A stretch of DNA of 62,792 bases, counting the filler, from Hausera hauseri (taxonomy: Eukaryota): the NCBI GenBank assembly GCA_046269625.1. It is 12 parts of 12 records of this genome, joined end to end, with 100 filler letters (N's around TTAATTAATTAA, not from the genome) between each part and the next. Parts side by side here need not be neighbours in the genome. Positions count along the whole stretch, not along the records: positions 39,465 to 48,989 come from JBJURY010348823.1; 11 more parts are not named here. One strand, given 5' to 3'. Numbering within the stretch: the stretch's first letter is position 1; every line of letters begins with the position of its first letter. The notes beneath the pieces are model-generated. The model saw only the letters and a list, made by a program, of their open reading frames with translations, ran no database searches and was not told where the DNA came from. Below, in pieces: positions 4,134 through 61,163 of this stretch. The translations under genes and the position numbers were made by a program.

Positions 4134-4151
4134 AATAGATGGAAGTGAGGA

Positions 4152-15625: not shown

Positions 15626-15947
15626 ACACCGACTGGCAGAATCAGTGGTAACCGTCTGGAGAGGCGAATACGTCAGAAGGTCCTTGTTCGAGGCGAGTAA
15701 CCTTAAGAAAATAAATGGATCACAGGAATTCAAAAGAGATTCGAAGTTTAAAATTGCTGAACCTCGAGTTAAAAGGATCTGTCAAGAATCAAATACCAAC
15801 GGTGTAAAGTGGGAAAAGATATTAGAGGATTGCATACTGGAAGGAAATAAGTCACAAAATTTGCAGGAGTCGTCTAAGGCGGATGAAAGAGAAGAACTCG
15901 GCTTTAAGGATTTTGTGCAAGGAACAACAAAGACAGAGAAAAGGAAA

Positions 15948-16175
15948 TTGACGGTATTTCTTGAGACAATATCAGGAAAAATAATTGCGATATTAGTCAA
16001 AATGTCGGATAAAGTGGAGGAACTGAAGTCGATTGCCGAGGAAAGAGAGGGAATCCCAACAAACCAACAATGGTTAATTTACAATGGAAAACTACTAAAG
16101 GATTCTCGGAAACTTAGTGAATATTATATTCAAAAGGATTCAACTGTTCATTTGCAGTCGCGGTTAAAATGTGGG
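15948..16175 (+). other. Ubiquitin domain within BEL/Pao Gag ORF
   Basis: Exactly 76 aa. 36/76 identities to ubiquitin by ungapped manual alignment. C-terminus LQSRLKCG. Confidence 0.92.
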
Positions 16176-17281: not shown

Positions 17282-17428
17282 TGCTGGAATTTTGATAAAA
17301 ATGGGCAGTGTAAATTCGGAAAGAACTGCAAATACTTGCATCAATCTAACAAGGACGATCAAAGAAGGTTATGTTGGTACTTCGAAAAAGGGGAATGTAA
17401 GTATTGGAATAATTGTAGGTTTCTACAT
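17282..17428 (+). other. Two CCCH zinc fingers at the BEL Gag nucleocapsid position
   Basis: CWNFDKNGQCKFGKNCKYLH (C-x8-C-x5-C-x3-H) and CWYFEKGECKYWNNCRFLH (C-x7-C-x5-C-x3-H), in the same frame as the protease. Confidence 0.9.
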
Positions 17429-20554: not shown

Positions 20555-20572
20555 TGGCGACCCTAGCAGGAC
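20555..20572 (+). promoter_or_regulatory. Primer-binding site (probably tRNA-Arg)
   Basis: TGGCGACCCTAGCAGGAC, identical to 10686-10703. Confidence 0.85.
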
Positions 20573-20617
20573 TGTTCTTGAATCATAGAAACTAGAAAAT
20601 CAAAACTTAAACAAGGC

Positions 20618-24106: not shown

Positions 24107-27100
24107 TTATCTCAAACGCCAATGTCCGTAAGCCCAATTTTTATTTCGCCCCACCCACTTTCGCTTGTCATCGTTGCATGACAAAGCAACCTTTCTATTT
24201 GTGATGATCTACAGCTGGTGCTCAATCGATTGTATAATCGTTTGAAACACAACAACCTTTTCTCTTTCTCTGTCTTCCCGTCTTCTTGTCCATCATAGAC
24301 ACGGCAACAATCACAGTGATTTATTTCCGTCTGTTTCAGCTGGATGCCTTTTGCCCGCATTTTCGGCCCACAGTCTGTCAGAAGACTGTATCACTTTGGG
24401 CGCAAAAATATCCATTCACTGTATTGAACCCGGCCTTCATTTTTGTCCTTGAAGCAGCCGATTCTGTTTGTTATCACGCTGCTGTACAGTGGATGGACCC
24501 GTGGGTAGTTAGACGTGTCCAGTAGTTTATCTGACATCATTTGTCGGAGCAACTGGTTTCAATTGATGTTTTTCAGCTCAAGGAAGAAGCTGTCTGTGTC
24601 ACCGGCAACGATACTGATTTCACAGCCGCCGCCGCCGCCGCTGAACATTTGCCAGTAACGTGTCAAGTCGCGATATTGGAGCTCGTACATTCGCAACTTG
24701 TTCAGGTCCAATACCACTTGTCCAATGTAGTTTGGCCGGTCCAATACAACTTATTCCCGGTTTAGAAGCACGGCCACCAATCCATCGGCAATATGCATTG
24801 ACCGCCTGAACTGAGCCTTGATGGTGTACGTAACCATTCGTTTTTCGTTGTTGCACAGGCGCACATTGAGCCACTTCTTCAGATTTTCCACTGCTTTTCC
24901 GTACAGGGAATTGTTTTTGAGCTTGTAATAATCCTTTTTGAACTTTGTACAAGCTGTAGCACGTTTTCCGGAATTCCCATCAGTGTACGCCTTAAATATC
25001 GGCGCCTGATTGAAGCAGATTGAACGATGCAGTTGTGTGACGCGTACACCGAGCTGCATGTAAAACTGCAGCAGACGCCAATGAATCACGTAATTCGATT
25101 TGGGTTCATGTGTCATAAGCAGTTTCTTTACTTTTGAGCCACTGGGTGGACATTGGCTAATTGGTGCGACCGGCAGTTCATTTAGAAAGTCATGCAGCTC
25201 ATCCGGTACCACGAGATCAACTTCCATCAGGTAGCCGACTGAGCTGCTTTCTGTCGTGTTTGCTGCTGACAGACTGTCCAGCAATGTGTCCAGTTCTTGT
25301 TTGTCTATTATCCATTCAAATGAACCGTACGGCAAGGGTTGCGAAAGCGCCCAGCTGTACAGGTTATTAATATCGATGTACAACATTGACGTTGTATCAT
25401 CATCGTCATCACTGGTTAAATGATGCTTGTTGACAAATGTCATGCCGCTACGAATACCAACATCAAATAGTTTGTACATTTCCGGGTTTTGCAACAGCTC
25501 AAAATCCCTGTCCAGCGACATTAGTGCCGATGCCCAACTCATTCCCGGTATGGAGTAAAAGTTTAGCGGCTCCAGCCTATCTTCCGCCAACGTCTTAGCA
25601 CGAAATGTCTGAAACACATCGGATAACAAGTACACGTCCAATTTAAGATACTGGAGCATGTAATCCAACATGTTTCTGAAGCCGAGCTCTGTCCATGTTT
25701 CCTGTGCTCTCCTATATTCATCTTCCGTGATGCCTGTCCATCGAGGCGGCAATTCATCTGTTGTCTGAAGCTGCTTGTACGACACAGCAAAGTCATATGG
25801 GAATATGCCTTTGCTGCGTGAAATGTGTGGGGAACTGAGTCAATGTTAGCGGAACATCCTGCCAGGCATTTACGAGCTTTGCTAGAGACTCGTTGAGAAA
25901 TTGCAAGGAGTCAAGGAAGCGTACCTGGAACCGGTTTATGCGTGCTGAAAGGGACAGGTACTTCTCCATTGTTGGGATTATGGACAGTTCCCAGTGCGGA
26001 AATCCGTTGATGTCCCATTTTAGAATATGGTGACAATCATAACCTCGGAAATTATGAAAGATCACCGGCAGGAATGGCCGCACACGCCTTGCCAAATTGC
26101 ACGAATTGCATGTTGTTCCCAAATATCGACCGGTGAAATGATCATGGCCCGGTACAAGCCGTTCCAGTGCATCAAAAGGCAATATTTTGTGGCACAGGTA
26201 ACATTGATCGGTCGCAGCGAACATCAGCGGTTCATATTAATCTGTCCAAATCAGTGGTTTAGTGGAATTATTGCGATACCACGGCTCGATTTCCGTTTCC
26301 ACTATCGTTTCCAAACACTGCAGGAAATTACGTACACAGTTCCAGCCGTGAAAGGCGTAATACTGCGGCTGACCGACCGCTTTTATTGGGATAATCAACA
26401 TACCAACGGCGATTGGAACGTGCTTTTGATGATACACGTGCCGTGGTAGAATTGCCTCAATATCGGCATATACCACATGCCGGACTGTCCGTTTTCGACC
26501 AGTCACTGAATCCGAGCTCCTTTTTGAGTCGCATGACGTACATGGTTGTTCCCGTTGAATTCAGCTTGCACAGCGCCACATGTTTCTCCTATGTTGTTTT
26601 TGACCTGAAATCATGCAGACACACAGGACACCATTTACATTGTATACGCTTTTGGACAAACTGACGGTGATCCATGTTTAACAGTCTGTCCAAATTGGTT
26701 ATTGCCACGTAGTGAAATTTATCTGCTTGCTCCAACAGCAAAAAATTTACCGAGCATCCATTCGGGTTTCGACTGCGATAAATTATCCACGTGTGGGTTT
26801 TTGTATCTCTTTGTCTTCTGGTATTTCTACGATTATGTTGTACCGGAAAACGTTGATTGCCAGAGTAGTATTACGCCGTTCAAATGTTGGGGTGGATTTC
26901 AGTTTCATCGGCATCCAGCTTTCATCGAATTCCAATTCGGAAAAATATTGCCGATACTGCTTTGTACGATTTGCATGTTTTCTAACCACTTCGTCGTATT
27001 TTAATATAGCCAGAATACTGTAGATAAAACAGTATTCGTCGTCGGTATTTTTTACATTCACTACCTACAGAGACTGCTTTAGAGCTGCAGATGTCGGTAT

Positions 27101-33708: not shown

Positions 33709-36700
33709 TTGCTCGATCCCGCTGCACTGCATCCCCTTTCTCTTATTTTTTCTAATAATAAACATTTGTATAAACTGAGTGCTGCATGCAAACATACGGC
33801 ACACATTCTTTATTATGCATTTTCTTCCTTTTTAGGCTCCTCCGATTTTTATTCCATGCACAATGGCCTGACTCTGTTATCTTCCGACTCTCTGTCATCT
33901 TTTGCATTCGAAAAACATTCAATGATTCTCACTATTCTTCTTCGTATCCGTGGTGGATCAAACTCTGACCCTTCTGCCGAAAACTTAACCAAAACTAGAT
34001 CTCGTCGTCGTCCTGCCGACCCTACATTAAACCCATCTCCAAATCTCCGTTGCAAGGATTTTTTTTTCTCGACAAAACAAATTCTTGCCGTACCAAGTTA
34101 CAATTTCAATTGCAAGGGCTTAAAGCCAATTATATCACAGACTTTTTTTGCGGGCGAACATATTGCTGCTACTACTTCCGGCTAATATCAAGCAGCAAAT
34201 CAATAATCTTGCCGACATACTAACCTCTTCAAATCTATATGATATGCTTTATGAATTAGTTCTGCACATTATCGACCCTTCCCTTGACAGAATAATTCAT
34301 AAATACTTTAATGAACATTCCATCGGAAATTAAAAATCATCGGATTTCCTTATAACTGCAATATCCCAACTGAGTTCTTTAGGAGTCAGTCCTATAAACA
34401 ATGCCGATCTTCGTCGATATTTTCTTTCATCCTTGCCAACCTCCATCAGAGCGCTGCTCACGGTAGTAGACGACTCAACGGCCCATGAAAAGCTCACCTT
34501 ATTGGCAGACAAAAAGTTTAACATTTTGCAATCTAATAGTCAACAACCAGTAGCTTTAGCAACCGCTGACACACCTTCACACACAGATAACACTTCATTT
34601 TTACAAAAATCGCAAATGATGCATCAACTGTTTGACGAGTTACAGCCGCCAATTTTGGCCATTATTACCAAACTAAATAATCTTAATGGGCCTCGACAAA
34701 GTGAAACCAGACCTTCAAGGGAGAGAAGCATTTCCAGACACTCAACTCGATCTATTTCACCTGACGGACGCATGATTTGTCTCTATCACACGCGATTTTG
34801 AAGGGATGCTAGCAAATGTTTTTTGGGTTGTCGGTTCTACAGCAAACAATACGCTGTGGACAACCCCATTTGCGTCTATCACAATAAGTTTCTGTCACGG
34901 GCTACATCATGTGTGCCTGGCTGTAAATATTACAACGATAAATTTCCTCGCTTTTCCTTCTCCTATTCGTTTTCTCCAAAACCTTCAAAAAAGTAATAAT
35001 GACGCCAGATTTTACGCCACATTCTGGCTCAGGCAATATCGCTCAATCGTCTGGCCGTTTTAACACCACCTCTGCAGTCTTTCTATTGAAAGCTGTACTG
35101 TTATGCAGAGATACTTTACATATCGACTTCCTTAGAGACTCAGGAGCTGCCTTTTCGCTCCTTGCCTTGTCTTTCGTTCCTACATCGACTATGATTTCCT
35201 GTCCACCCCTTTTTACTGCCAGTGGTCAACTGATGCATGTTGCAGGAACCATAGAATTAACTTTCACATTCGCCAACTTGCCGGATAAATTTGTCTGGAA
35301 GTTCCATGTGGTCAACATTAAATCTCACATAATAGGCTCAGATTTTCTCACCGCACATGATCTATTGGTATATTGCAAATACAGCTGTCTTTTAAGCAGG
35401 AACTCAATTGCAACTCCAAACATGTGTCTTGTGGACAACTTAGCGAGCAATTCACTGCACTCATCTATTAACCTGTTGAACGCTTCGTCATCTATAAAAA
35501 ACTTCCGATAAAGCCGCCAATATTTCCATTATGAACGACAATCATAAGTCTATCCTAAAACAAAAATCCAAATTAGGCGTCAACAGTATCGATGCCAGTA
35601 GCTTTTCGTCAATCATTGAAGCTGTTCTCTCTAATGATATGCCTCATTCATTCTTGTTTCTAGACTCCAATCTTAAATCATACATCATAACGTCTTGCTT
35701 TCGCATAGTTAAAAGGGACATCAACTTCAAGCCTCCATCCACAACTTATCATTACATAGTAACAGAGCGTCATAGGCCGATCAAACAAAAGGTCAAACCT
35801 TTGTCGCCACGCAAACGTAAAACTGTGGAACAGGAATTTAATGAACTGGAAAGGTCTGGCATCATTCAAAGATTGAATTTACCGTGGGCGTCTCCTCTTC
35901 ATGTAGTGGAAAAGAAAGATAGTACCTATAGGCCATGTGGCGAATATCGACAATTAAACAATCTAACTATTACTGATGCCTATCCACTACCACTCATTAA
36001 AGATATTCTTCATGGCCTTAATAACAACAATACCTATTTTATCATTGATCTGCACAATGCCTACCATCAAATTCTTGTTACCCCTGATGACATTCCAAAA
36101 ACTGCTGTCATCACACCATTTGGCCTTTACAAATACATCTTCATGCCTTTCGGCCTATACAGTGTTCTCAGACCTTTCAGCGCCACATTGACACTGTTCT
36201 TTATGGTCTTGATTTTGCTCACACATACATAGATGACATATTAGTCGCTTCCAGCTCCATCAAACAACAACATGAGTACCTTAGAATTATCTTCCACAAA
36301 TTGCATCAAAGCAACCTGCAAATTAATTTCGACAAATGAAATTTCTTCCAGAAGCGCGCCAACTTCTTAGGCCACATAATTACTCCCAAAGGGCATTCGC
36401 CCCAGCTTAACCGCTTACAACAATTAAAAAATGTGACGTTGTCAACTACTACTACCGATATGAGGAGTTTTTTAAGGACATTGCATTTCTTACACAAATA
36501 CGTGCCACACTGCTCCGAACTAACAGGACGTTTCACAAACATCTCATCTGGGAAGAAAAGACAATTAATCCATTGGACTCACGATCTAGTAAACCAATTT
36601 GATCGCCTTCGTGAAGGTCTGAAAACTGTGGAAATCTTGGCCTTTCCAAAACCAAACGCTGAACTCATATTAACTGCCAATGCCTCAACCACAGCAACTG

Positions 36701-38880
36701 GTGCAATATTACACCAAATATACAATGGCGTCGATGAACCATTAGAAGTTTATTCCTGAAAGCTCACGCAACCGGAAAGCTAATACTCAACATTTGATCG
36801 TAAACTCTTGGCTGTAGTTCTAGCGGTAAAGCATTTCAAGCACTTGCTTCTTTCACGTCAATTTACCATCGAAACCGACCGTAAGCCTCTACTTCACATA
36901 ATGACTTTGAAACAGCCCTCACCCAGACAAAAACGTTAGATATCATACTTGTAAAAGTTTAGTTTTTACATGAAATATATTTCAGGCACCGAAAATTTAA
37001 TAGCGGACTTTCTTTCGCAGTCGGTTAACTCAATTACCTTTCAGCCAATTTTCTCCCCTGAGATCCTGAGAAACAATCAGCCATTATCTGATAATCTTCA
37101 AGCTTTTATATCTGTTAAAATCATCGATGGCATTGCTTATGACACTTCTAACTCGACCAACAAGAAAATCATTCTTGCTCCATTGCTACAAAAGACAGCT
37201 TTCAATCACTTTCACTCTCTTCATCATTTGGGTTCAAAAGCCACATTTCGACTACTGCAACGCCACGGTGTATGGCCAACTATGCATACCAATGTACAGA
37301 TCTGGGTCAAGGAATGTGCAGCATGTCAACAATACAAGGTTCATAAACATCTCAAACCACTACTCTATCACTTCCCTGACACTTCTCGTTTTGAAACCGT
37401 GCATTTAGATCTTGTGGGTTCTCTACTTACCGATAACTGCTATCAATATATTTTATCCATGATGGGTTGAGCTTCGCGCTGGCTAAAAGCCGTTTCGCTT
37501 CGATCAACCAAAATTGACTCAGTAGCAGATGCATTTATCAAGATATAAGTCAGCCGTTTTGGTTTATCACGTTACATCATAACGGTCCAAGGTCCACAAT
37601 ATGAAGCTGATCTTTTCCAATCGCTTGTGAAGCACTTGAGGATAGCCCATCTCCATACGACGCCGTACCATCTCCAAGCAAATGGTTTTCTCGAGAAATT
37701 TCATCGCACCATGAAGATTTCATTAAAAATCCTGGCAAGGAACAATCATAACTGGACCTCAATTCTTCCTCTTGTCCTACTCGGTTGAAGCAATAGGCCA
37801 TATACCACCACAGGCTGCGCTCCAGCTAAGGCTCACTTTGAGACACCAGTTCGTGCACTATTTGAGCTTTCGAATCTCGATGAAACTCCGTCAGATAAAA
37901 TTATTCTTGTGGCACAGTCCCACTTTGCTATTGTCAACTCGAATGCCTTCTGTCGTCTTATAAATAAAGAAAAATCTTATATTCCAGAGGACTTATACTG
38001 AGCCAAGTTTGTATGGCTGAAGGATCCGTCACCTTCTGGTTTTTGGCCTCAATACGTTGGACTTTACAAACTACTCAATCACTCTTCACACACTGCTACT
38101 ATTTTACGCAAGTACAAACCCTATAATGTATACATTTCTAATCTTAAGCCAGCCTTCTTCCTTGACGATGACCAGGATAACAGCCCTGTTGCAAATCCCA
38201 ACTTTAACTTCTCTACTCTCGAGCCATCATATAATTTCCTTGATGATTTTAATCCTTCGCAGCATTCACTCTCGCGTCACAATCAGCTCTCTTCACTTCC
38301 GTCATCATCCACTGCTTCCTCACTATCTGCCTCTCCGTCATTGCCTGAACATTCACTACTCATTTCACATTTATCTCGCGATTCACTGCCATCTCCAGTT
38401 TCGTCTTCTTTACGTGATCCTTTTATTTTTTCAGCTTCTTCTCCATTTTTATCTCATCATGAGGCATCCTCCCAGAACACCACAAAACCCACGTATTCTC
38501 TAGCTCAAACAACTTCACAAGCTCCAGTAACATCTAACAGGTCACACCAAGTGACATTTAGCACTTACAGCAGGGAAAAGTTCATAGATGGGGTCCAACG
38601 CCTAACACGGACCAAAACCGAAGAGGTACAAGTTCTTCTTCTTTCTACTATAATCTTCATTTATTCTTCTCTTTATAGTCTTAATATGGCCACGGAGGCA
38701 ATGATGTGGTACCGTGGTCACCGGCATAGCTCGTTTCCTCAGAGGCGAAAGTTAAACTTCAAGCGGAAATTTCAATCTCTTAGACTCGTTCATGATCGTC
38801 TATCAAATCGTTTATCAAATCAAACAATGAAGGACTATTGTAAGGTTCCACCTTACAAAAAAGGGGAAAAAAGGAAATAA
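33709..38880 (+). mobile_element. Ty3/gypsy CsRn1-like element: UBL-gag-PR-RT-RH-IN, decayed, with start of the 3' LTR near 38705
   Basis: Gag CHCC motifs, protease FLRDSGAAFS, RT WASPLHVV..YRPCGEYR..MPFGL..YIDD, RNase H LTANAST, integrase H..H..C..C, VHLDLVG, VGLYKL..ISNLKPAF. Confidence 0.9.
33730..33957 (+). other. Putative ubiquitin-like domain ending LRIRGG, N-terminal to Gag
   Basis: HNGLTLLSSDSLSSFAFEKHSMILTILLRIRGG aligns with ubiquitin [32 protein letters not shown]. The N-terminal half is divergent. Confidence 0.6.
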
Positions 38881-39464: not shown

Positions 39465-40230
39465 ATAGATATTGGAATTATTCCGGAGGAATCAAATCGA
39501 ATAGTAACTATAATTACCGACGAACAAACAAAAGACGAGGCTGTAAGGAAAGCGAGAGCTGAACATTGCGTAGGACGCATTATGGGAATCCGAGACTCTG
39601 TCATGCATTTTGACTACCTCCAAAGTCAGGAAGATAAGGAACAATACGATAAGAATCTAGTACCGACTAGCGAAGCAATACCAACTGAGCCGAAACAGAA
39701 ACGTGCAGTTGGAAGGCCGAGGAAAATAAGAGATGATATTGACCAAAGTGTAGCCCTGATACGAGAACTAAGACAACTATCCATGCCCGCGATTAACTCC
39801 GATAGCGAAGAATTAAACGAGCTGCTGAGAAACATTATAAAAAAAGTGAACTATTCGGGGCCAAGAAACGAGATGTTAAATGAAGAAGAAAGGGCAATTT
39901 ACGACGCAGCAAGGATAATGAGAACATTTCGGTTCAAAATGAACAAAAGCAACTTACCTGACGAAGTTTTAATCGAGAAAATTATGGTAGGGAACACTAA
40001 GGAAGAATTAAGGAAAGTAATATTATACTTGGCAATAAAAACAAATCCCCTAAAGGAAAATTAATTCAATAGAACCATTAGATTGATCAGAAAAGCTGCT
40101 AGGAAGATACGTAGAGAGATAAATTGGCCAAAGCTATTTGACAACAAAGATCGAAACAGACCGACCGCTAGAATTGAAGATGTGGTAAGAAATTTAATAA
40201 CAACTAACTCAGCGCGAGATAGTGAATCGA
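39465..40230 (+). pseudogene. N-terminal part of C9 ORF1, unknown helical region with an AT-hook (GRPRK)
   Basis: Same frame as the downstream glycoprotein, with one stop at 40062. 5' end cut by the contig edge. Confidence 0.6.
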
Positions 40231-42152
40231 ATTGGGTGATTAAATTAATAACACTTATAATGTTAATAAGACAACTCGGTACAATCACGGTATATGACTG
40301 TGATAAGTTTAAAATAGGTCAAAAATATTCCCTGATGGACCTGGAGTTGTTTGAGGATGCCAGACCCCACAAGTTAATAACCATTGAGAAAAAGTATTTC
40401 TTGTATCAACAACGCGAACTAATCTCAATAGATGGGATAGAATGTATGTTACGACGATCGCGAAGCATTTTTCACTGTGGAAATATGCACGGGTGTTCGT
40501 CAGTAGTAAAACCAACGACATCGCTAATTCCTATGGATTTAGATCGCCAACAATGCAAACAAGCCAGGGAAACAGGAAGATTGAGATGGGATGGGATGGA
40601 GTTAGAAGCCCAACCAGGAAAGATAATTCGAGTATATAAAGTAGCAATTGGGAAATTAGATATTCCCACCGGATACTGTAAAAGGGGTGAGTATGATACA
40701 GGAAAAAGAAGAGAAGCAGGAATAGTAGTGGTCGATTTCTATGAGACAGAAATGAGGAACTAAAAGGTGATGTTCCATAGTGTTACAAAAACATATACCG
40801 AGAACCAGAAATATCATATTCAAGATGGTGCCTGTACTTTCCGAAATTCGATAGTTATTTGCACCCCATCACCTATGAACGATTGTAACTTTATTAAAAT
40901 ACAAGAAATAAATTTTAATGAAACAATAGGAAAAAGATATGTAGAAACAACTGACAATAATGCCAGATCAAGGAAGGACGTAGCTGAACAGTCCACACCC
41001 ACGATATTGATCTCCGAGGATCACGGGTTAAAGTTCATTAAGAAGCAAATGCTTTCTCGATGTAATGTAGTAATGTATGCCACCAATTATGAAGCATTCG
41101 TCGTAGCAGAAGCTGCAATAACTACTTTTGTCCTGGAAACACAAGTTTTAAGAATAGATTACTTAAAGAATAGAGATGATTACTTCTATTATAAAGGGCA
41201 AATTGGACTAGCAGAATTATATCACAAGGTGATCGCAAATGACTGTAAATTGGGTATGGAAATCATGAGGACCAATCTATCCTTAATATACTCAAATCCA
41301 AAACTAGCATCGCCCGTAATTCCAATGAAAGAAGGCATTTTCGGAAGAGTTACCGGGGAAGTATTGTTGACCTATGAATGTGAAAAACGGGACGTGTCCA
41401 TAAACGTAGAGGAAAACCGTTGTATTCAAGAATTGCCAGTCATATATCAGAACGTACCTCGATTGGCTATGCAGTTTACAAGAGTTTTGCTAGAAAACCC
41501 GACACAGTCAACAATTTTGAAAGAATGCAAATCAGGTTTAGGGGAACCTACGTTTAATAGAAGTGAGACAGATTGGATAAGTCTGACAAATGGAAGAATA
41601 ATAGTTACACTTGGCAGATTTATCAGAACAAATTCACTAAGGGGAATAACAGACGATAAGTTCGCCGACACTGCAGGTAAAGGGATTTAAAGACCAAAGG
41701 AAATTGAAGCTTTCAGTCAATTCCTAGCCTTCCCTCGACAGCGTACACATGAGCTAAATAGATCCATGTCAACGGTGATGGATGACACTCGCTACCAAGC
41801 AAAATGTGAATCCCTACTCGGCGTTAATCATTATTAAAGAGTCACTACAGAAATACTATGTAAAATCTGGGGATGATTTTTAATTTTCGAACAAGCTGCA
41901 TCAGGATTTTTAGCCATCTACTTCTTGGTACAACTCGTAAAAGGTATAATTCAATCTATTATAAATGGCTATGAAATGTTTACCCTGACCGGATTTTTAT
42001 GCAAAATTTTGACCGCAATCACAACGCAGTTTGGAAAATTTTTTGAAGGCCTACGAAGAAAACAAATGGAAAAGCGACGTGGAGACACGTTGGTTAATAT
42101 AATCGAAAACAAAAGGGAAAACATATATTTTTTATGGGACAAAGAAACATAA
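40231..42152 (+). pseudogene. env: Chuvirus/herpes-gB-like class III envelope glycoprotein (in-frame stops only)
   Basis: Signal peptide then VYDC; C..HCG.MH..SVV; C..ARETG; GEVLLTYEC; CIQELPVIY.N..TRVL; GI*RPKEIEAF..FP; KIWG*FLIF..SGFLAIYFLVQLVKGII..IINGY (TM region). Confidence 0.85.
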
Positions 42153-45100
42153 AATTTCGAAAAAACGATTCGAATGATGATGAGCCTAAGGGAGCAGACG
42201 CGATCTCCAAGATACACAATCGCAAGACGTTTACGCCGTCTTTTCCCATGTTGCCCCCTTCGGCGCCGCAATACGAAGACAGCAATAAGAGATCTATTAA
42301 CTCATACAGTTCGGAAATTTATCGAAAGCCTTTCAGTTACGAAGATCCCTATGATGGGGCAAAACAATACGGTGTGTTACGAAAGATGTACCGAATTAAA
42401 GAAAGATCTGAATCATGCCGCCAGCTGGGAGATGATCACAAAATGATATACTCCCCAAGGATTTCACGGAATATAGAAACTAAATCATCAAATTGGGATA
42501 ATCCACGAATGCCATCTTTCCATAGTACAAACAATCGAGAATCGTTAATTAATACACAAGAACGGGATAACGAGAACGGCATAAATAATGGATTATATCC
42601 CATTGAAGAACTAAGGCAAGTAGTCGAAAATACGGTACCCGAAAATAGTATAAATGGGTACATGATATCCGTCGTTAGACAACCTAAGATAAAAGAAGAT
42701 AGACCTTTCACCAAAATTAGTATCGACGATTGGGAAGTATATGCACTAGTAGATACCGGATCGGAAAAATCATTCATAAAGAACGGATCGATACCAAAAG
42801 CACTACCGAATCAGCTACGTCTACCACTAGCAACTGATCCCTGAAGTGTAGGAGCTTTCGGACAAGAATTGAGACCAAAATTTAAATGGAACCTTAATCT
42901 TAAGATAATGGGACAAACTATCCAACACGATATATTGCGAGGTTTACCAAATATTGCATTAGATTTGAATACCTCAAAGTTAATCGAGCTTGAACCCATA
43001 AGAGTGACCAAGATTAATAAAGAAAGAGAATCCGGAGAAGTATGGATTCCGGTCGACGAGAACAATCCGCCTAGAACGGAATTTTTGATATTCGCGCAAA
43101 TCTGTCAAGACGATGATTTGCCAGTATAATTTGAGACGAAGGAAACGCTAAATCCAAGTATAATATTGAGCAACGTACTGACCCGAGTAGTATCCGGTCG
43201 AATACCCGTAAGAATAGTAAATAATTCTCAAATTCCAGTAAGGTTATAATCTAACACTACTCTAGGGCATACCTGCAAGGTATCAGCAATAACGGTTGAA
43301 GAGAAACCGTATAAATACCCTGAATTTCCAACACACGTCGATAGTAAATTTTCACCAGAGGCTTATTGTCAATTTTACGAATTGTTATGTCGATATATAT
43401 CAATTATTGCGAAAGACGAAGAAGACATTGGCCGAGCAAAGGCATTAAAGTTAACTATATCGCTTAAGAAAAAGCCTTGTTCCAACGACGAGATCGATCT
43501 CGAAGAGCAGGAAATGCCGAAATGGTATCCGCCGCCACATTCCTTCAAACCAGAGATAACCAAGGAGGTAGAACGAATGCTCAAAGCAGATATAATCCGA
43601 CCAAGTTTCAGATCATGGTATTCACCTCTCTTTTTGGTTAAAAAGAAGGGTACCATGAAACATCGAGTTTGTATCGATTATAGTGTTAAATACTCTCATG
43701 ATGAAAGATTCTTTTCCCTTACCATCTTTGAAAGAGGCTCCGGATAGGCTCTCCGGAGCAAAATGGTTCACCACCCTGGACTTGCAATCCGGATATTGGC
43801 AAGTAGATTGAGGATGAAGATCGTTATAAAACAGGGTTTAAAACTCATGATGGCGTATATGAATTTAACGTTATGCCATTTCGAATTACCAATGGACCAG
43901 CCATATTTATTAGTATGATGAATAAAATGCTAACGGGACTTAACCATGCATTTGCGTACTTAGATGACGCAATGATTGCATCAAAAGACGAAAAAGGGCA
44001 TCTGAAGGATATTGAGGACACTCTTATAAAATTAGAACAGGCCGGGTTGAAACTGAACCCAAAGAAATATAAATGGGCTCAAAACGCCGTATCCTGCCTT
44101 GGCCATATAGTTGGTGACGGAGGATCAAAACCCGGCAAATCATAATTGAATAAAATTTCAGACTGTGTGGAACCTCAGAACCAAAAAGAACTGATACATT
44201 AGTTAGGTCTACGTGGATATTATGCTATCTACGTACGGATAACTCAAACATCAATGCGCCATTATACCGATTATTAAAAAAGGGAAGGAAATGGAGATGG
44301 ACCGATGTTGAACAAAAGGCGTTCGACGAAATAAAGATAGTAACTAGCAAGCCGGTACTGAGATATCTGACTTTAACTTACCGTTTATTATTAAAATAGA
44401 CGCAAGTAAAGAAGGTATCGGATATGAATTGGCACAGAAACGCGAAAACGAAGAACTAGAACACCCAATTGCTTATTGAGGACGCTCTATGAAGAAGGCA
44501 GAGAAAAACTATTCAGTGACAGAACTAGAAATGTTAGCAGTAAAAGAATCCTTAAGGCATTTTAATGTTTGCGTATATCAACAGAAGATAATAATAGTAC
44601 CGCTCACAAGGCAGTTAAAACTTTAAAGGGACGAGCAAACAACCCTACGTGTAGGCTGAATAGATGGATTGAAGAGATCTCTAGGTATAATATTGAATTC
44701 CAATATAAACCTGGTGCGAAGCACGTTGATGCAGATGCGTTGTCATGATTAAAAAGGAAAACAAGTGCTATCATGACAATGAAGAAGAACCAGCTCGAAG
44801 AATTAGTAGACCGACAACGGATTTTAGCGCCAGACGGAGAAATGAGAATTTCGAGCGAACAAAAGAAGGATCGAGTTATCCAACAAATCATGGAATAAGT
44901 TCAAACAGACGTAATGCCAAAAGAGCGCCAGTTAAGGAAACATTTACAACGACAGGGACAAAAATATTGTGTCTCCGAGAACAAGAACAATGAAAAAGTG
45001 CTGTATTTCGAATGAAAAGGAAGATAATTAGTAGTCATACCCAAAATTCTACAAACTGAAGTTTTAGTAACCGAACGCGATTCGTATTTGGCAAGACACA

Positions 45101-46334
45101 TGTCCTGGAAGAAGACGTTCGATAGGGCGTTAAACAAATAGTATTGGCCTAGTATATATATTGATGTGAAAAATTGCGTAAGGGCTTGCGAAGTAGGCGC
45201 AACTAAGCAGAGGAAAATGAGGAATTACATAGCAGAGCTGAAACGGATAACTATGCCGGTCAGGTCGATGCAAGCTATGTCATTGGATATCGTAGGACCA
45301 CTTCCCACGACGCACAGAAATAACAGATATAAGCTAACATGCGTCGACCGTTTAACTGACTTCGTGGAGTTAGTAGCGCTATATGATCAGAAAGCAGAAA
45401 CATTAGCCGAAGCCGTGGTAAGGAAAATTATCTGTAGATATGGAGCGCCTGATCAGATACTAACTGATCGAGGGAGAAACTTCACCAGCAAACTATTCCA
45501 TAAAATTACGAAAATATTCGAAATCGAGAGGTTAATTACGACAGCTTACCATCCCCAATGTAAAGGAATGGCTGAGTGTATGAATGCTACTGTAATACGA
45601 ATATTGTCAACCGTAGTCGCGAAAGATCAAAGGATTGGGACGAATTCTTAGAAGGTACACAATTTGTCAACAATACGACACCACACCCCGCGACAGGATT
45701 TACACCATTCTTCGTGATGTATGGACGAGAAGCAGCATTACCTACGGACTTAGGAATAATTGCGTATGAAGCATATCTCGAAGAATTAGAACCAAATTTT
45801 GTAAAAGTTCTACAAATTAGACTGCAAAAATGTTGGGAGATAGCGAAGACGCTATCCTTAGAATACCAAGAAAGATTCAAAAGACAATATGACAAGAAAG
45901 CAAAACAGCACGATTTAAGAAACGGAGATTGGGTCTATGTGTATTACCCCGTAGCTAAAAAGGGTCCATCGTTACAACTCACGCGTGCTGGAAGAAGACC
46001 TTACAAAGTTATCAGAATAACACCCACTACAGTTTATGTTAATAAAAACGGAACGGAAGAAGTCGTGTCAATACAACAAGTAGTGAAAACAGAGATAAAA
46101 CCAAGTAAACAACATCGATTACGTGTAAAAGATACAAAAGCGAACCAGAAAACGAATCACAGGAAAGCCAAGACCTCGTCTATAGTTACCAGACCCATGT
46201 CTTACATACAGATAGTCTTAGCACTATCACTGATAGCTTCATATATTCCGAAAACCACGGCTCAAGGAGGATTGATTCGACAACTAAACAAATGGATGAA
46301 GGATGAATTGATAAGAACAAAAAGAAACGACTAG
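42134..46334 (+). pseudogene. pol: Ty3/gypsy pol (PR, dUTPase-like spacer, RT, RNase H, IN), decayed
   Basis: ALVDTGSEKS; SPLFLVKKK..RVCIDY; FTTLDLQSGYWQV; MPF..YLDD; IDAS; NYSVTELEMLAV; LDIVGPLP; TDRGRNF; TTAYHPQ; RPYKV. Confidence 0.93.
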
Positions 46335-48989
46335 AGCACCTAGAATCGATTCAAGGTCCAAAGTATAGATCCAAGACGAGACCGTGTGCTATTTAATACT
46401 GACGGAGCCGTGAGAAAATCAGTGAACTACCCAGTAGTTCTATGGAACGCGAATAAACGAGTAATGGCCCATTGCGATTTTCCGTATGGAGCTCGAGAAA
46501 GATGTATCATAGATTACGGAAACATTTATACCTTCACAATACGAATGTACTATAAACCTACGAACACAAACAAGGTGCGATAAGACCGCAAGTAAAACTA
46601 GTAATACCCGTCAAAGAACAGATCAATGCAACAGAGCTCGGTGACATAGTACCGTCAACCGACCCAATTAGATGGTATTTCCAAAGATAAGAAAAACAAG
46701 TGTATCCAAATAGATACAAAGGGAAGATTGCCAAACAACCAGGAGATCTCAATTCAATTTACTAAAATAAACGAGTTAAGTCCAGCTCCCAATTACTGTA
46801 GCATCAAGTACAAAGATCTTAGAATCTGTTGTAAAATCTCAGAAGGTTATGAATATAGGATTCATTTTGACCTCTATGGAATTCATATAAATAAACCGAG
46901 CACTTATTTAGGAAGATATTATCCGGACAGTAGAATCTGAAAAATTGTGGTTGGAACAATGACGACGAGACGAACTGTTCTAGTAAGCACTACTGTTAGG
47001 TTTAATACTAAAAAGAGGAGCAAAAAGAAATTACTTAAGATCTCTGTAAAGTGCTGGGCACAGCAACGCAAAATAATATTTTCAGTGGAAGAAAAGCTCA
47101 ACTCTAATATCGAAATAAATTGCCGTACGATGTATAAGAATGTAAAAACGACTTTATTGAAAGGCATATACCACACCGAATGCAACTCATTAGTACCAAA
47201 GACAGAATAATAATACCAATGCATGCAAAAGACCTGCAGAGCCGAACCTTCGCAATACAAACCCTAGAAGAAATACAAAATGCAACATATATAGACAAAA
47301 ACAAGACAAGAAATCACTACAGAGATAACGACTACCAAACCCGAAGGGTTGACTACATTACCCTTAGTAATGATCGTAAGCCTGTCAACCCTTGTACTTA
47401 TAATATGTATCGCGATATTTCGTTTAGTTGCCATAAATTGCCAAACTAAACGCCCTAAAATCATAGAACGGGAATTAAGGGTATTGGGACGCCATGAATA
47501 CGTCTATGATAAAATAACCTGACGATTACAGATCGGGTTATTCTGTCATCAAACAAAGAATTGGTTTTGGTTCAAAACCACACTTATTCATAAGATTAAC
47601 CCTTACTCTTTATTTTTTAGACTCGTGAGTAAAGAGAGAAATACAAAAACAGATACCGGACGACCTAGGATCGACGGATCACGACCTATCCAAGAACAAG
47701 AACAATGTAATATCGATAAATCACCAAAACGCCGACTTAATATTGACGAGTTCTTGCAGAATTACGCTATCATTCTCCGCCCAAATTCGAAATCAATATA
47801 TAGAGAAATGCATAATGAATTGCACGAGAAAACCTTCGTGAAATATGATCAGAACCGTAAAATTCCAAACAATTTAAAAGGTATTACGGAATGAAATAGG
47901 ATTGTTTACCTTTACGCCATGAGAGAAGACAAAGATGCCCGAGCATATTCACTCAAACAGATGATCACGTACGGGAACCGACAAAATATTTCTATCCACC
48001 TGGCAGACGGTGAGATATACTGTCGGTTCAAAGACCAAGAATGGAGCACAAACAACAGAAGACAATATAGATTCAATACTCTTAGCTTACATAGCCAAAA
48101 TTTACAGCATTATGAAATAGAATTCAGAGTAGCCGCCCTTCCCGTAAAATTAATGTTCGAAGTAGTGTACGACGATTACCCCTATATCAAACTGCCACTT
48201 TGAAATTCTGTCAACAATCGTCAGAAAAGGCCTTGGACACATTCGTACAATCGTGTCGACTAGTGGAAGATGCTAGAAATACCAGAATCATAGCAATCAA
48301 TTGTGGAGAAGGAGATGGTGCACAAAGGATCCCAATGGAAGTCTCAGTTCGAGAAACGAACGGAACCGAAGTATATTATATGATTATCAGCCCGAGAAAA
48401 CGCGTTCGCGAGACATACTATGATACGATAGGAATTCGGAAGGAAACACTCTCGAGAGGTAGAGACATAAAAATTGTTCAGGCCGAGTTAGAACATTGTT
48501 TATATTGATATATTATAACTGAATATCTCATCGATAGCATTGTCGAAGTCTTAGAAATACCCATGTCAAGTATCTTAGGAATGCATGAAATAGGGACGCA
48601 CCCAATAGTCGCCGAACAAAGTAAACGAATATTGCGAGAAAGGAATTACCCCGCACCAAAATTTATGGACGCCTATTTCAAATTAATGGTTGATGTCATG
48701 AACAGCGAACATTTTAAAATTAGCAAACTGTTAACCGCAAGTCAACGTACTCACTGCTTGCGCGATATTGACGTAGCTTTAAAGTGGGACCATGAGTGGA
48801 CACCCAATAACCCAGAACAAAATTTACGAAGTACATCCGACCCGGAAACTATAAACAAAAAGCATCGAAAGCAGTATCGTCCGTATTCCCCGTATAGAGT
48901 CGTGGAACCCATGGGACAGGATAATATCAAAATAACTATTCGCAAATCAGATCAATCGTACACCGCTCTGCCAAGCACCAGTTATGGTT
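46198..48989 (+). pseudogene. Post-integrase cargo: signal-peptide-led Cys-containing region, unknown domains and a DEDDh-like exonuclease fold
   Basis: Most ORF fragments (46386, 46728, 46947, 47625, 47919) share the integrase C-terminal frame. MSYIQIVLALSLIASYIPKTTAQ. ISG20/REX4-like segment at 48284-48787. Confidence 0.55.
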
Positions 48990-49377: not shown

Positions 49378-49928
49378 TTAACAATTTTCTTTAAGGACTT
49401 CTCGCTTATCAATTTCGATATTAAGAACCTTATACTTAAATGTGTTTTCATGTCAAATGAAATTTCCTTTTGAGTTTGCTTTCATGTCAAATTAGATTTC
49501 CTTTTAAGGGGAACATTACCAATCCTATTTGATTTTGTATATGTCTCTACGGTTTTATCTCTTTTGTTAGCGAATCATTTTTCCTTGTTGCCTTACTGCT
49601 ACAATCATTGACTACTATTCCTTCCGTTTTCTATAATCACTTCTGCTTCCTCTCGCATGTGACTATTTAGTATTTACAACTCGTCTGTATTCATCTGACG
49701 CAACTCTCTGAAGTCATTTCAAAAGCTATCTGGTACCGTGTTTTGAGACCGGCAAACATTCTACTTAATTGCAACTTTACGTGGCTGCATTCTGTCCGTA
49801 GACTGCATTGTCTGTTTAAGGTCGGCTGTATGACTTCTTCTTTGTGACTATGAACTCTCCGCTTTGCAATGTTTTCGCCACGTTGAATGACAGTCTTTAT
49901 GCTGTTTCACTAAGCCTTGTGGACCGGT

Positions 49929-52900
49929 ATGTACTTTGTCAGATCTCACGATACCACAGTAATCATAAACATGTCTCATCATTCCGGAATTATGCATTAC
50001 TGTCCCTGGTTATGTGATGACACGTCTCGCGATATCTGAATAAATTATAATTTCTGTGAGGACAGATCTTATGGTACAATGAGTATTGCACTATATCCTG
50101 GGACGACAGTTCCGGAGTTTCAGGAAAATGTATGATAATCTGAGATTAGTGATATAACGATTACCGAGTTATGAACTCCATTCTGGAATTAACATGCCTC
50201 ACGATTCCCGCTTGACATTCTGGGATGACAGATCTCATGAACTTGAATTTGAGTCACGACTTTCTGGTGATGACAGAACTTACTGCAATCAACTAATGCA
50301 TACCGACATCTCGCTTCATTCCGGACTAATGCTCGATATTCTGGGATAACAGATCTCATGATATCGCATTCCTGGCACGTTCTGGAATAATAAATATTGC
50401 GGTGACGTTGCATTTCACAACGTTGTGGAATACCATATCTCATATTCCTGAATAATATTTGAAGAAATACATCTGGATATCTGAATAAATCAGGACGATC
50501 TAGGATGAGAGTTTACTGTAAACACGTAATGCACGACGTTCAGTTTTGACAGGTCTCAAATTTCACGAATAATACACAAAATTCTGGGATGACTGATTCC
50601 TAAAAATAAACAGTATTCTACAATAACACATCTCATGATTCCTGATTACTGTCCAAATATGTACTTTGTCAGATCTCACGATACCACAGTAATGAGAAAC
50701 ATATCTCATCGTTCCCGAATTTTGCATTGCTTGTCCCTGGTTATGCGATGGCAGGTCTCGCGATATCTGAATAAATCTTAATTTCTGTGAGGACAGATCT
50801 TATGGTACACTGAGTATTGCACCACATCCTGCGACGACAGTTCTTGAGATTCAGGAAAATGTATGAGATTCTGAGATGAGTGTGGAAAAATAAATATAAT
50901 GATTCCTAATTAGTTCTCTAGGTTCTGGCATGACAGATTTCATGAACTTTAATTCAGTCACGAATTTCTGGGGATGACAGGACTTACTGCAGCCGACTAA
51001 TGCACAGTGATATCTCGCTTTCATTCCGGTAAGAAGTCGCGACATTTGAATAAACGTCTATCATTAACCAGTAATAATGGTAATTGACATTCCAAAATAT
51101 CACTAATATCGTTATTCCTGATTAATGCTCAAGTGTCTGGGATGACAGATCTCGTTATATATGAATATGTCATACCGTTCTGGGATGATTTCTGAGTAAT
51201 GCCAGATTCTCTGGAATGATGATCTTGTAATATCTGAGTAATGCATCATGACGTTCTGGAAAAGGAAATGCTAAAATTTTGGAATGACATGTCTCTTGAT
51301 TGCTGGTTAAATCTGTGAGATTATGGAATGATTGATCTGATGATATTTTAATATTGAAACCTTAATCATCGATCATGCTATTTCCTATCTTTGAATAGCC
51401 TGTATTATTCAGTAATTGTGAGTACTCTTATAACAGAATCTCGCGTGTTAATCGGGTATGTGAAGAACTGTTATTCCAGAATGTTGTTCATTTCTTAAGC
51501 TTCATTGAATCTTCCATGCCAGAATATATGATATCATTTGGGTACATAAGACCTCTCAGATATAATGAGATTTGTCAACCCAGGAATCAAGAATCATGAG
51601 TTATTTGATGTGGAATGTTTTGTGCATTATCCAGATACAATAAGATCCCAGAACCTCGAGCGTTACTCGGGTATCGTGAGAGATGTTATTCCATAATGTT
51701 GTGTATTACTCGGATTCCATGAGATCTCTCATCACAGAACGTCATGAATTTTTTCATATATAATGCGATTTTCTTTGAGGTTTTCGTACGTACTCTGGTA
51801 TATTTGGGGCTATCTCGAACATTTCTAGAATCTTATTAGATCTCTTATGTCAGAAGATTACTCCGGAATCGTTAGATCGCTCATAACATTATCTCGTGTA
51901 TACGACATTCTGGAATGACATATCTCATGAACTGTAATTTAGTCACGACTTTCTGGGGATGAGAGAACTTACTGCAGCCGACTAATGCACAGGGACAACT
52001 CGCTTCATTCCGGAGTAATGTTCGATATTCTGGGATAACAGATCTCATGATATCGTATTCCTGGCACGTTCTGGAATAATAAATATTGCGGTGACGTTGC
52101 AATTCACAACGTTTTGGAAAACCATATCTCATTTTGCTGAATAATATTTGAGGTTTTGAGAGGACATACATCTGGATATCTGAATAAATCAGGACTTTCT
52201 AGGATGAGAGTTTACTGTAAACACGTAACGCACGACGTTCAGTTTTGACAAGTCTAAAAATTCCCGACTATACAAAATTCTGGGATTACTGATTCCTTAG
52301 AAATAAACAGTATTCTACAAAACAAATCTCATCATTCCTGATTACTGTCCAAATATGTCTCATCGTTCTGAAATTATGCATCCATTAATGTCCATGGTTA
52401 AGTGATGACAGGTCTCGCAAATTCTGAATAAATCATAATTTCAGTGAAGACAGATCTTATGGTACAATGAGTATTGCACTACATCCTGGGACGACAGTTG
52501 TCGAGATTCAGGAAAATGTATGAGAATCTGAGATGAGTGATATCACGATTCCCGAGTTATGAACTCCATTCTGGAATTAACATGTCTCATGATTCCTGAG
52601 TAGTGCTCGACATTCTAGGATGAGACATCACGTTGTACCGGAATACATTTCCATGTGGAAAAATATATATCATGATAAATGATTAGTTCTCTACGTTCTG
52701 GCATGACAGATCTCATGAACTTTAATTGAGTCACGAATTTCTGGGGATGACAGAACTTACTGCAAGCGACTAATGCACAGCGACAACTCGCTTCATTCCG
52801 GAGTAATGCCCGATATTCTGGGATAACAGATCTCATGATATGGCATTCCTGGCAAGTTCTGGAATAATAAATATTACGGTGACGTTGCATTTCACAACGT

Positions 52901-52996
52901 TTTGGAATACCATATCTCATATTTCTAAATAATATTTGAGGTTCTGAGAAGACGTACATCTGGATATCTGAATAAATCAGGACGTTCTAAGATGAG
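49929..52996. repeat. Complex satellite: ~40-bp subunits in a ~730-bp higher-order unit, with an inverted block
   Basis: Unit restarts at 49929 and 50659. Recurring TTCTGGGATGACAGATCTCATGA. The reverse-complement form appears at about 51430-51860. Confidence 0.85.
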
Positions 52997-54426
52997 TGTC
53001 TTTCACTAAATATCTTAATTTGGGCGCCTGTGTCTACGATAATTCTGACGCGTACCTTTTCAAAATATATGATGCAGGAACTTGGGTCCGAAGGTAACAT
53101 TAATCTCATACGTTCGTTTCTTCTGATTCCGTAATGAATGTTCTGGAACACTATTTCGTTGTTCGAATGCAGCATTTGGTTGAGAGGAATCGTAATTGAG
53201 ACCTGATGTGCTCTGATCAATCTTCTTATTTCGAGACTGTGGGCTGTTCTGGAAACTAGCTGGGCGGGTGGGAAATCTATGGAAGGACTGGCCATGGGAT
53301 TGTGTGCTTCGGGACTCATGAGGACTGGGTGGGGCGATTCTTCTTGTAGCGTTCATCGGGATAGATGGGCCATCATGTAACTCCACTCGGTGTAACCGTG
53401 GTGGACTCTCCTATATCCATGGACTCTTCGTCTGGTCTCACATTCGCATTTCTCTTCAGCTCTCCATGTGGGCTTCCTACATTATCGTTCACCTTCAATC
53501 GCTTATTGGCCTTCGCTTTCTTAGAACACGGAAAACCTGGCTGCTTTTTGCTAACAAATCGATTCTGCTTGACCTTTACTGACTTATTTCCTTGTGAAAA
53601 TCTGCTTACATTCCTCTTTTGACTCTTTTTCTGTCGAAAACTAACATTTCGTTTCGGAAAGCCTGCCTCCTTTTGTGTCCCTAACCGCCGGAGGTTTATT
53701 TCGGAAAGGGTCTCTCGTTTTCCAAATTCGACTGTTGTCTATTTTCCTCAGTTAGTGTCCCATTTTCCTTCTTGGAAAACTTTGCAAAATGCCCAACTTT
53801 GCCACACCGAAAACAATTTTTCGTTTGTGCAACATCTCTGTCAGCTTCTTTGGGGAATTCTCTTCCAGTTCTACAATCTCTAATCTTGTGACCAAACTGA
53901 CCACATTTAAAACATTGTATGTGACTCAGCATTTCCTGAACTAGCTTCTGACTAGGCCGTGTATACTCTTCGTAACTGCCTCGTTTCACTGTTCTATCAA
54001 TCCTCCTGTGCCTTAACTGGTCAACTTCCATAGGATCCTGTCTGTCAACTACACTCTCTCTGCCAAATCTCATATCTACTCGCTTTGAGAAGTTTGCCTC
54101 ATCGACTGCAATCTGGATAGCCTCATATATAGAAGAGGGTTCATCCTTCATTAGCTTAATACGTGTGCGCTTGCACCGGAGACCATCCGTAAAAATAGGT
54201 ACCAGTGTCTTGCTGATAGTCTCTGACGAAAGATGCAATGTATCGTACGCAGATTCCTTCATATTTAATAATCTTCTCCGTACATCTGCGGAAGCTCGTC
54301 TTTGTCCTGGCGGATACGTCGTTAAGCCGTAATTGCACACTGCATGTCGGTAACTTCTGCATATCTACTAGCTAATGTTTTCTTCAGTTCTTCCCATGTC
54401 TCATTCGGATGTGACTGCAATCTTCT
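52997..54426 (-). pseudogene. gag: Ty3/gypsy gag with two CCHC knuckles plus the protease start, cut by the satellite
   Basis: FTDGL, PMEVD, CFKCGQFGHKIRDC, CFRCGKVGHFAKFS (last C lost), RIIVDTGAQI. Confidence 0.85.
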
Positions 54427-58773: not shown

Positions 58774-61163
58774 CTCCTCAACCAGACATGGGTTAAAGCT
58801 CTTAAGAATATCCAGCTACCACGTACGACCACTGAAATGCGCAGCTTTTTTGGTACACTACACTTTGTACATAAATATGTACCATATTTCTCTAAATTGA
58901 CAGCACCATTTGCACACTTAAGCGGTGACAAAAAACATCAGCCAATCCATTGGACACCTGAGTTCGTTGTCAAGTTTGATAAGCTACGCGAAAAAATTAA
59001 TACCGTCGACATTCTCGCCTTCCCCAAGCCTGATGCAGAATTCATCCTTACTACATACGCTTCAACCACTGCAGTAGGTGCTGTACTTCACCAAATCCAC
59101 AAAGATGAAAATCAACCACTAGAATTTTTCTCTTGCAAGCTAACATCCCCTGAAACTAGATATTTAACGTTCGATCGAGAATTATTGGCAATCGTTCTTG
59201 CTTTAAAGCATTTCTCCCACCTACTTGTCGCTCGCCACTTTACTATACAGGCCGATCACAAACCCTTACTTAACATCATGAATATGAAATATCCTTCCGT
59301 ACGCCAAGAATGACAGATATAATATTTGTCGACATTTAACTTCGACATAAAACAAATTAACGGGGTTAATAATTTGGTTGCCGATTTTTTATCTAGGTTC
59401 GTTAGTGTGATTAATTTCTCACCGATTTTTATGCTAGCTCAACTTCAACAGAATCAGCCACCTCAAAACATGCTTAATTCTTTCAAGTCTTGAATAGTCG
59501 TTGACGGCGTGGCTTTAGACACTTCCAAAACAGGTAATTCCTTAATAATCCTTGCACTACCGTTGCAAAGGCAAGCATTTAATAGTGTTTATTCGCTACA
59601 TTACCCTGGTGCTAAAGCCACTTTTCGTTTACTCCACCGACAAGTAATTTGGCCGTCAGTGCGTTCCGATGTGCAGGCATGGGTTAAGGAGTGTGTAGCG
59701 TGCCAAAAATACAAAACAACTAAACATCTAAAGCTACCTCTATTCCAATTCCCCTGAACATCGCGTTTTGAATCCGTACATATTGACATCGTTGGCCCTC
59801 TTTCTCCAGACAACGGTCATCAATTCATTCACACTATGATGGACCATTCCTCGCGATGACCAGAAGCCATCCCTCTGCGGAGCACATGTAACGATACTAT
59901 AGCTGACGTTTTCATCCGTACATGGATTAGCAGGTTTGGATCACCTCGCTTCATCATCACGGACCAGGGTCCACAGTTTGAATCCAACCTTTATAAATCC
60001 CTCGTTAACCGATTGGGGATCCACCACATACATACTACGCCTTATCACCCTCAATCGAATGGCCTTTAAGAACGTTTCCACGGAACATTGAAAACGTCAC
60101 TAAGAATTCTGGCAGAGTCCAACACTAGTTGGACGAATCCTCTTCCGTTTGTTCTACTCGGCTGGCGGAACACTCCGTCCACATCTACAGGATGCTCACC
60201 TACTGAAGCCTTATTCGAAGGTCCTGTACGATCATTATTCGAACTAACTGCCCTGGATGACACTCCTATAAATGAAATGATACGGGCGGCACAAAATCAC
60301 TTTGTTACGGTCAGCAAAGATTCGTTCTGCAGGTTATTTCATAAAAACAAAACATATTTACCGAAGATTTGTATTCGGCAAAATTCGTATGGCTAAAAAA
60401 TTAAACAGTGCGGGATTTAGCCGCGGTATCTGGAGCCCAATAAACTGATGCAAATGCATTCACATAACGCTATTATTTCTAAATACGGCAAAGAACTTAC
60501 AGTGCATATCACCAACTTAAAGCCCGCCTTCTTTTGTCGACGACATTTCACCAATAGACACGTCAACCTCTTTTCTCACTCCCATACTTCCTGTTATTCC
60601 TATATCTATTGCTACATCCGTTTCACCTCCTCCTTCTGCTCCTAGTTTTGCATCATCATTTTCTACACCTTCTACTTCTATTCCTATCTCTTCCTATCTC
60701 TACCCTCTTTCCGTTTTATTTTCTACTTCTACTCTTTCGCGTAATACAATTTCAACCTCTACTCCAATTTTCATCTCTCCTCCTTCATTCGCCATTACAC
60801 CTTTTATCACTCTTTCGCTTTCTAACACTCTCTTGAATACATGTAACTATTCGTCTCCACCAATCTCTGTTGCTTCTTTACCTTCTCCTTCTCTTCATTC
60901 TGACTCGTCTTTGCATGACACAACACTTATAACAAAATACGACAATTTTTTTCCACAACTTCAAACTCTGAAAACAAACACACCGCATACAAACAAACCA
61001 CGCAGAGTCACATTTAGCATGTATAGCAGTGAAAAATCAATAAAAGGCACCGAACGTCTTGTTCACACTAAAACCAACTGACAGACACTTTTTCGTTTGG
61101 TGTTTTTTTTCTTTCTGTACCTTTTACTCTTAATAGTTTTAACTTTGCCACAGGAGAGGGTGA
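58774..61163 (+). pseudogene. pol: Ty3/gypsy CsRn1-like pol 3' part (RT end, RNase H, IN, long S/P-rich tail, PPT)
   Basis: FDRELLAIVLALKHF, DHKPL, HYPGAKAT..C..C, VHIDIVGP, TDQGPQFES, TTPYHPQSNG. Purine-rich tract AGGAGAGGGTGA before TGTGG at 61164. Confidence 0.9.

Follow-up and report, generated by a model that had tools for sequence, protein, structure and literature searches.

A decayed Ty3/gypsy copy in Hausera hauseri with a class III envelope glycoprotein ahead of pol, likely related to the Burro-like Gag-Env-Pol elements

In the genome assembly of Hausera hauseri (GCA_046269625.1), one contig carries a retroelement in which the frame of an envelope glycoprotein (Env) precedes the domains of the polymerase polyprotein (Pol). 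The locus raises the question of whether this order is a genuine property of an element family or an accident of a single damaged copy, and of how Pol would reach the particle in such an element. The contig (JBJURY010348823.1) occupies positions 39465-48989 of the window, i.e., the whole analyzed stretch of 62,792 nucleotides (filler included), in which 12 contigs of a repeat-rich assembly are joined by N-spacers; these positions correspond to one whole contig. It is a decayed copy with both ends cut off. We are confident that it is best explained as a decayed Ty3/gypsy element whose env lies ahead of pol, likely of the Burro-like kind in which Gag, Env, and Pol share one frame.

The env-side frame (39465-42149) contained five stops in 895 codons as compared to 101 and 68 in the remaining two frames, which agrees with the initial annotation of one frame running from the contig start through an AT-hook, a signal peptide, a glycoprotein, and a transmembrane region. 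Pfam family PF24664 (Monjiviricetes_fusion) matched residues 258-870 of this frame with an E value of 2.3e-44. The signal-like stretch immediately precedes the YDC start of the ectodomain, as it does in the relatives described below. The structural model of the ectodomain, for which stop codons were entered as X, had a predicted local distance difference test (pLDDT) score of 88. Its best PDB matches were to herpesvirus glycoprotein B (gB; E 3e-12, template modeling (TM) score ∼0.4) and its best matches among viral models to the chuvirus glycoprotein (G; E 3e-31, TM score up to 0.69). The Pfam and structural matches together confirmed the class III envelope that had been proposed for this locus. 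The conserved cysteines were retained at 12 of 14 positions, and the anchor region could be aligned with the anchors of relatives up to ∼42040-42140. A sequence search of the env frame against the PDB and a word-indexed near-length search each gave no match.

The glycoprotein is followed along the contig by a protease (PR), a reverse transcriptase (RT), an RNase H (RH), and an integrase (IN), so that the placement of env upstream of pol proposed earlier was upheld (Table 1). The order PR-RT-RH-IN is that of Ty3/gypsy elements (Metaviridae) and is colinear with the relatives, including the RT, where PF00078 matched positions 43807-44142 (E 6e-17). The set of Pfam matches was of the gypsy type, no family specific to Pao being among the matches listed up to E 1, and the nearest pols were likewise gypsy-type. 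The env-to-integrase core is compact (∼1,940 codons); one protease was found in the window copy, and no ankyrin repeats were seen. The spacer between protease and RT, probably dUTPase-like, had no Pfam match.

Table 1. Features along the contig, in window coordinates.
Feature	Position	Strand	Basis
Gag-env linker, start open at the contig edge	39465..40229	+	AT-hook-like GRPRK, helical stretch, stop at 40062
Predicted internal Env signal peptide	40230..40283	+	Hydrophobic stretch ∼40236-40290
Class III fusion glycoprotein ectodomain (chuvirus-G/gB type)	40284..41867	+	PF24664; stops at 40761, 41688, 41835
Membrane anchor of Env and beginning of its cytosolic tail	41868..42152	+	Hydropathy (membrane segment from ∼41870); stop at 41874; frame ends at 42150
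Remaining Env tail/linker to protease	42098..42694	+	Open frame, here different from the env frame
Aspartic protease	42695..42980	+	PF00077 (E 3e-4); DTGS at 42752; stop at 42842
Probable dUTPase-like spacer	43034..43297	+	Alignable with the equivalent spacer of relatives
Reverse transcriptase and connection	43520..44350	+	YLDD at 43957; broken by frame changes
RNase H	44366..44620	+	PF17919 (E 8e-23), PF17917 (E 7e-22)
Integrase: zinc finger, core, C-terminal domain	45037..46043	+	PF17921 (E 9e-10), PF00665 (E 3e-11), PF18697 (E 0.055)
Predicted second membrane protein, broken	46200..47520	+	Signal-like stretch ∼46212, ectodomain, anchor 47364-47420; hydropathy
Further decayed coding-like sequence	47523..48989	+	Long open stretches to the contig end; 3' long terminal repeat not reached

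Relatives were sought with env only over 1.84 billion representatives, and 20 hits (the top 17 and three more) were scanned for domains. The best hits were long polyproteins with ∼30% identity. Protease followed env within a single chain in 11 of the 20, five of these having RT as well; the other nine had env without pol domains, and RT or integrase ahead of env was found in 0 of the 20. A second search added five new proteins, all with env then protease and four of them continuing through integrase, and the same order was observed in P0153 (4,844 aa) and in the locus L002, which is a single 2,693-codon frame encoding capsid, zinc knuckle, Env, PR, RT, RH, and IN. The sequence near the start of the L002 frame we take to be primer-site-like. 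In total, 18 unbroken env-protease chains were obtained, some of them near-copies, with 10 extending through integrase, and in all 18 env and protease lie in one frame. The order of env before pol is hence a trait of a family and not a misassembly. Scans of IMG/VR and GTDB gave no loci, and P0004, a relative with the source label Flavobacteriaceae, is presumably animal DNA in a bacterial bin. It was also observed that P0153, P0155, P0156, P0157, P0006, and P0007 have between two and six protease-like domains, located downstream of env and of integrase, and that some of these relatives carry C2H2 fingers or ankyrin repeats.

The contig copy itself is broken at this junction. The second frame, which carries the protease, begins at 42098 and overlaps the env-side frame by 52 bases; the overlap that had been described is thus real, whereas a single frame for PR-RT-RH-IN is not, as the homology-guided path from env to integrase requires 16 stops and seven frame changes to be crossed, six of the latter inside pol. 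The copy is dead on account of these lesions. An offset of -1 within a 52-base overlap, together with an in-phase U UUU UUA heptamer at 42128-42134, would suit a member of the same family that produces Pol by programmed -1 ribosomal frameshifting from the env frame, with much Env and little Env-Pol. Such heptamers are common, however, with 28 on the contig; no stable RNA structure follows this one (z -0.45 to -1.49), pol contains six more frame changes, and copies in the sequencing run X1 differ from the contig copy by small indels in the env tail. All 18 relatives, moreover, read from env to protease without a shift. Since heptamers are common, nothing stable follows, and the relatives need no shift, we regard programmed frameshifting as unlikely.

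The frame break would also be expected if env had been joined to an unrelated gypsy pol by a one-off recombination, a nested insertion, or a misassembly, and the unsettled position of pol in the trees leans the same way. The remaining evidence makes such a joining very unlikely. Env and RT indicate the same relatives, the contig stays colinear with P0004 from 42455 onward through the linker, and the anchor-to-protease spacing of 296 codons falls within the family range (146-389 residues in 16 relatives). In addition, run X1 placed 11,391 contigs on the stretch, mostly <95% alike and covering 30 of 30 bins; many copies over all bins argue against a single event and indicate a multicopy family along the whole length.

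In the env tree (96 of 105 rows kept), the window env nested among retroelement envs with a FastTree support of 0.997. The window RT piece matched 12 family RTs, all of which scored above the 113 other gypsy RTs matched, and the FastTree of RT placed it with the family RTs in an exclusive group (0.91). The RT phylogeny that had been proposed as a check therefore agrees with the family in FastTree, while IQ-TREE did not settle the placement. A second IQ-TREE was computed on 614 pol columns with 11 relatives, the contig pol, and the 22 nearest background pols. The contig pol is a divergent member of the family or a sister lineage.

Several points weigh against the proposed reading. IQ-TREE on RT alone left the contig unplaced; in the second IQ-TREE, the 11 relatives grouped with 90/86 support and the contig joined them in 52% of bootstrap trees; and the integrase scores mixed family with non-family proteins. 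The env and pol frames differ in the contig copy, where the break is one of the seven frame changes. Run X1 may be the source sample of the window, and among its contigs listed none crossed the whole env-protease junction. Gag, the long terminal repeat (LTR), and the primer site lie off the contig and would be supplied by comparison with relatives, the likeness to Burro follows from a published description rather than from a sequence alignment, and the topology is a purely hydropathic prediction. Two of the weaker domain assignments also fall here: the best PDB match of the dUTPase-like spacer profile was dCTP deaminase at a weak E of 0.15, and the linker segment of the window ranked only 24 of 2001 against its own shuffles for Bcl-2 likeness.

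No LTR or capsid-like gag had been noticed initially, and both observations were reproduced: among the repeats listed on the contig, none exceeded 31 bases or reached LTR length, and a capsid profile built from four relatives and applied to 22 relatives and to the six frames of the contig found no Gag capsid in the latter. Both ends of the element are off the contig; hence, the LTRs, primer-binding site, and target duplication lie beyond the sequence. The profile matched 10 of the 22 relatives (four being its seeds, one match partial, and one with a stop before env). Capsid and env occurred in one chain in eight relatives, with the capsid ending at least 270 residues ahead of the env signal in all of them; upstream of its env signal, the contig has room for ∼255 codons. 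The absence of gag, to which meaning had been attached, is therefore what truncation predicts: as the contig ends short of where the relatives have their capsid, gag was most likely cut off and not replaced, and its capsid gene is likely to be situated right past the cut.

The blank profile on the contig and the 12 of 22 relatives whose predicted proteins have no capsid could instead indicate a Gag-less element, with Pol and RNA packaged through the envelope protein alone. This is hardly probable, given that the contig does not extend to the capsid position and that in two other window contigs a matching gag comes after a primer site of the L002 type. P0004, further, starts at the zinc knuckle with no capsid ahead, so that for some predicted proteins the start seems to be an internal one. 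The relatives retain the zinc knuckle as well as the capsid upstream of env, so that packaging of Pol by Env rather than by Gag, as initially envisaged, is not needed. The two window contigs, 10686-13815 and 20555-21928, begin with the primer-site-like 17-mer pattern of L002 and then a gag matching the family capsid profile (E 4e-23 and 3e-28, respectively). Each may represent the 5' end of a related element; neither showed a DNA overlap with the contig described here.

The linker ahead of env carries GRPRK, an AT-hook-like motif, at 39711-39725, and a GRP[KR][KR] motif was present upstream of env in 6 of 18 relatives. The helical stretch after GRPRK occupies the place of a Bcl-2-like domain in some relatives. 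A profile from the linker segments of five relatives matched Bcl-xL (E 1e-4), a match that was not blind because the segments were picked partly for a GGW motif. The linker model of the relative L001 (pLDDT 67.5) retrieved Bcl-2 proteins first (Z 11.7), with the top 34 rows all of the Bcl-2 fold; Foldseek on this model reached E 0.01 only, and the candidate segment of the window itself had no Pfam match. The gag-env linker of L001 (1801-3057) was observed to contain a ubiquitin-like domain (E 3e-4), an AT-hook-like motif, and a Bcl-2-fold domain, with one stop directly before the env signal.

Beyond integrase, hydropathy predicts a second membrane protein. At least two hydrophobic segments, laid out as signal and anchor like those of the contig, were found downstream of integrase in eight of nine full-length relatives, and any such segment in 2 of 99 ordinary pols, each taken up to 2,000 residues. 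Pfam and further searches gave no family match for this protein, and homology between the post-integrase ectodomains of the window and the relatives was undetectable (best E 0.04). The last 1.5 kb of the contig had no Pfam match below E 0.028, and 47523-48989 was also covered by other copies in run X1.

The order of env before pol, initially taken to be undescribed, has been published. The planarian Burro encodes Gag, Ubi/SUMO, BCL2, an in-frame mononegavirus-type Env, PR, a dUTPase-like domain, RT, RH, and IN (PMC6431247), and elements of the GAG-ENV-POL type with a gB-type Env are described from Nematoda, Bryozoa, and Platyhelminthes (PMC13524379). The contig resembles Burro/GYPSM1 in its mononegavirus-type Env between a possibly BCL2-like linker and protease and in the order PR, probable dUTPase-like spacer, RT, RH, IN (PMC6431247). 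Among the relatives, P0153, which has ankyrin repeats, is nearly as large as the Burro1 open reading frame (ORF) of 4,873 aa (PMC6431247), and L001 shares with Burro the ubiquitin-like and Bcl-2-like domains ahead of env. The contig copy differs in being compact, decayed, and truncated, with a single protease and no ankyrin repeats seen; Burro in the strict sense is a giant (ORF near 4,900 aa, element >30 kb), and the ∼1,940 codons of the contig cover the env-to-integrase core of an element cut at both ends. The account of Burro given in PMC6431247 makes no mention of a second membrane protein downstream of integrase. The "ancient errantiviruses," especially Smed_errantivirus_1-6, have the gene order and class III env seen here, although they are intact and often multicopy (PMC13524379). 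By eye and without scoring, six Schmidtea env rows in the supplement of that paper follow the motif pattern of the family, and the nematode C2 and bryozoan env rows seem to be another subtype (PMC13524379). Chuvirus G and herpesvirus gB share the class III fold and cysteine pattern but are only 10-20% identical, and the contig env is embedded in a retroelement polyprotein. In Anakin, env is located 3' of pol. Anakin likewise has a chuvirus-type glycoprotein within an LTR retroelement (PMC7642597) but a BEL/Pao pol, whereas the contig pol matches gypsy-type profiles and proteins. Troyka (PMC12440569) and Cer1 (PMC10309623), as described there, were considered and do not fit. With the contig, a group known from descriptions of 2019 and 2026 gains a divergent, dead member.

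The window holds other elements as well. A retroelement-like frame at 14576-18816, BEL/Pao-like by eye, combines a ubiquitin domain (E 6e-20) with CCCH zinc fingers in tandem, and upstream of it lies a cysteine-rich frame of 349 codons without a Pfam match. At 24754-26236 (minus strand) lies the decayed sequence of a type B DNA polymerase of the protein-primed kind, together with a zinc region resembling endonuclease VII, as in Polinton-like elements. Three decayed copies of another gypsy family (34334-38000, 58774-60345, and 3042-4180, the last on the minus strand) show 63-65% DNA likeness, and no env was seen in them. At 49900-53000, a long degenerate repeat occurs in several copies with 80-90% likeness, adjoined by a gag on the minus strand (53699-54364). 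No tRNA genes were found in the whole window.

How an intact Burro-like member would operate can be outlined from hydropathy and the general knowledge of translocation into the endoplasmic reticulum (ER); the contig copy is capable of none of these steps. One polyprotein would be threaded through the ER, with Gag and the linker remaining cytosolic, while the class III ectodomain would enter the lumen by way of the internal signal, which would then presumably be cleaved. The anchor would halt transfer, PR-RT-RH-IN would be made as the cytosolic tail of Env, and downstream of integrase a further signal would begin a second membrane protein. Signal cleavage would part Gag from Pol, which would hence travel to the site of budding on Env: Gag would assemble the capsid on the same membrane, and the tethered Pol would be freed by the element's own protease. 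Fusion of the particle after budding would finally be the task of Env, with stem or germ cells as the likely targets. Alternatives to an Env-tethered Pol are a spliced gag-pol RNA or a free Pol packaged via RNA. A printed account of Env-borne Pol or of the second membrane protein was not found, though Sacco et al. (2022), Grohme et al. (2018), Repbase, or the figures of PMC13524379 may hold one. More speculatively, and with rather less than even likelihood, the Burro-like elements could be enveloped retroviruses of a flavivirus style, with one polyprotein threaded through the ER that signal peptidase cuts between Gag and Env-Pol; Pol would then enter the particle on the tail of Env rather than as Gag-Pol, and the fast-changing post-integrase protein would be the receptor-binding partner of the gB-like fusogen, the contig representing a deep-branching compact lineage.

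The entry mechanism of the GAG-ENV-POL elements has been called unknown (PMC13524379), and BURRO1 RNA increases after smedwi-2 knockdown in planarians (PMC8532177). The relatives sharpen the questions of how Pol gets into the capsid when Gag, Env, and Pol form a single chain that crosses a membrane midway, and of what helps a lone gB-type fusogen to enter cells. With a topology predicted and a second membrane protein recurring among the relatives, both questions become testable in planarians.

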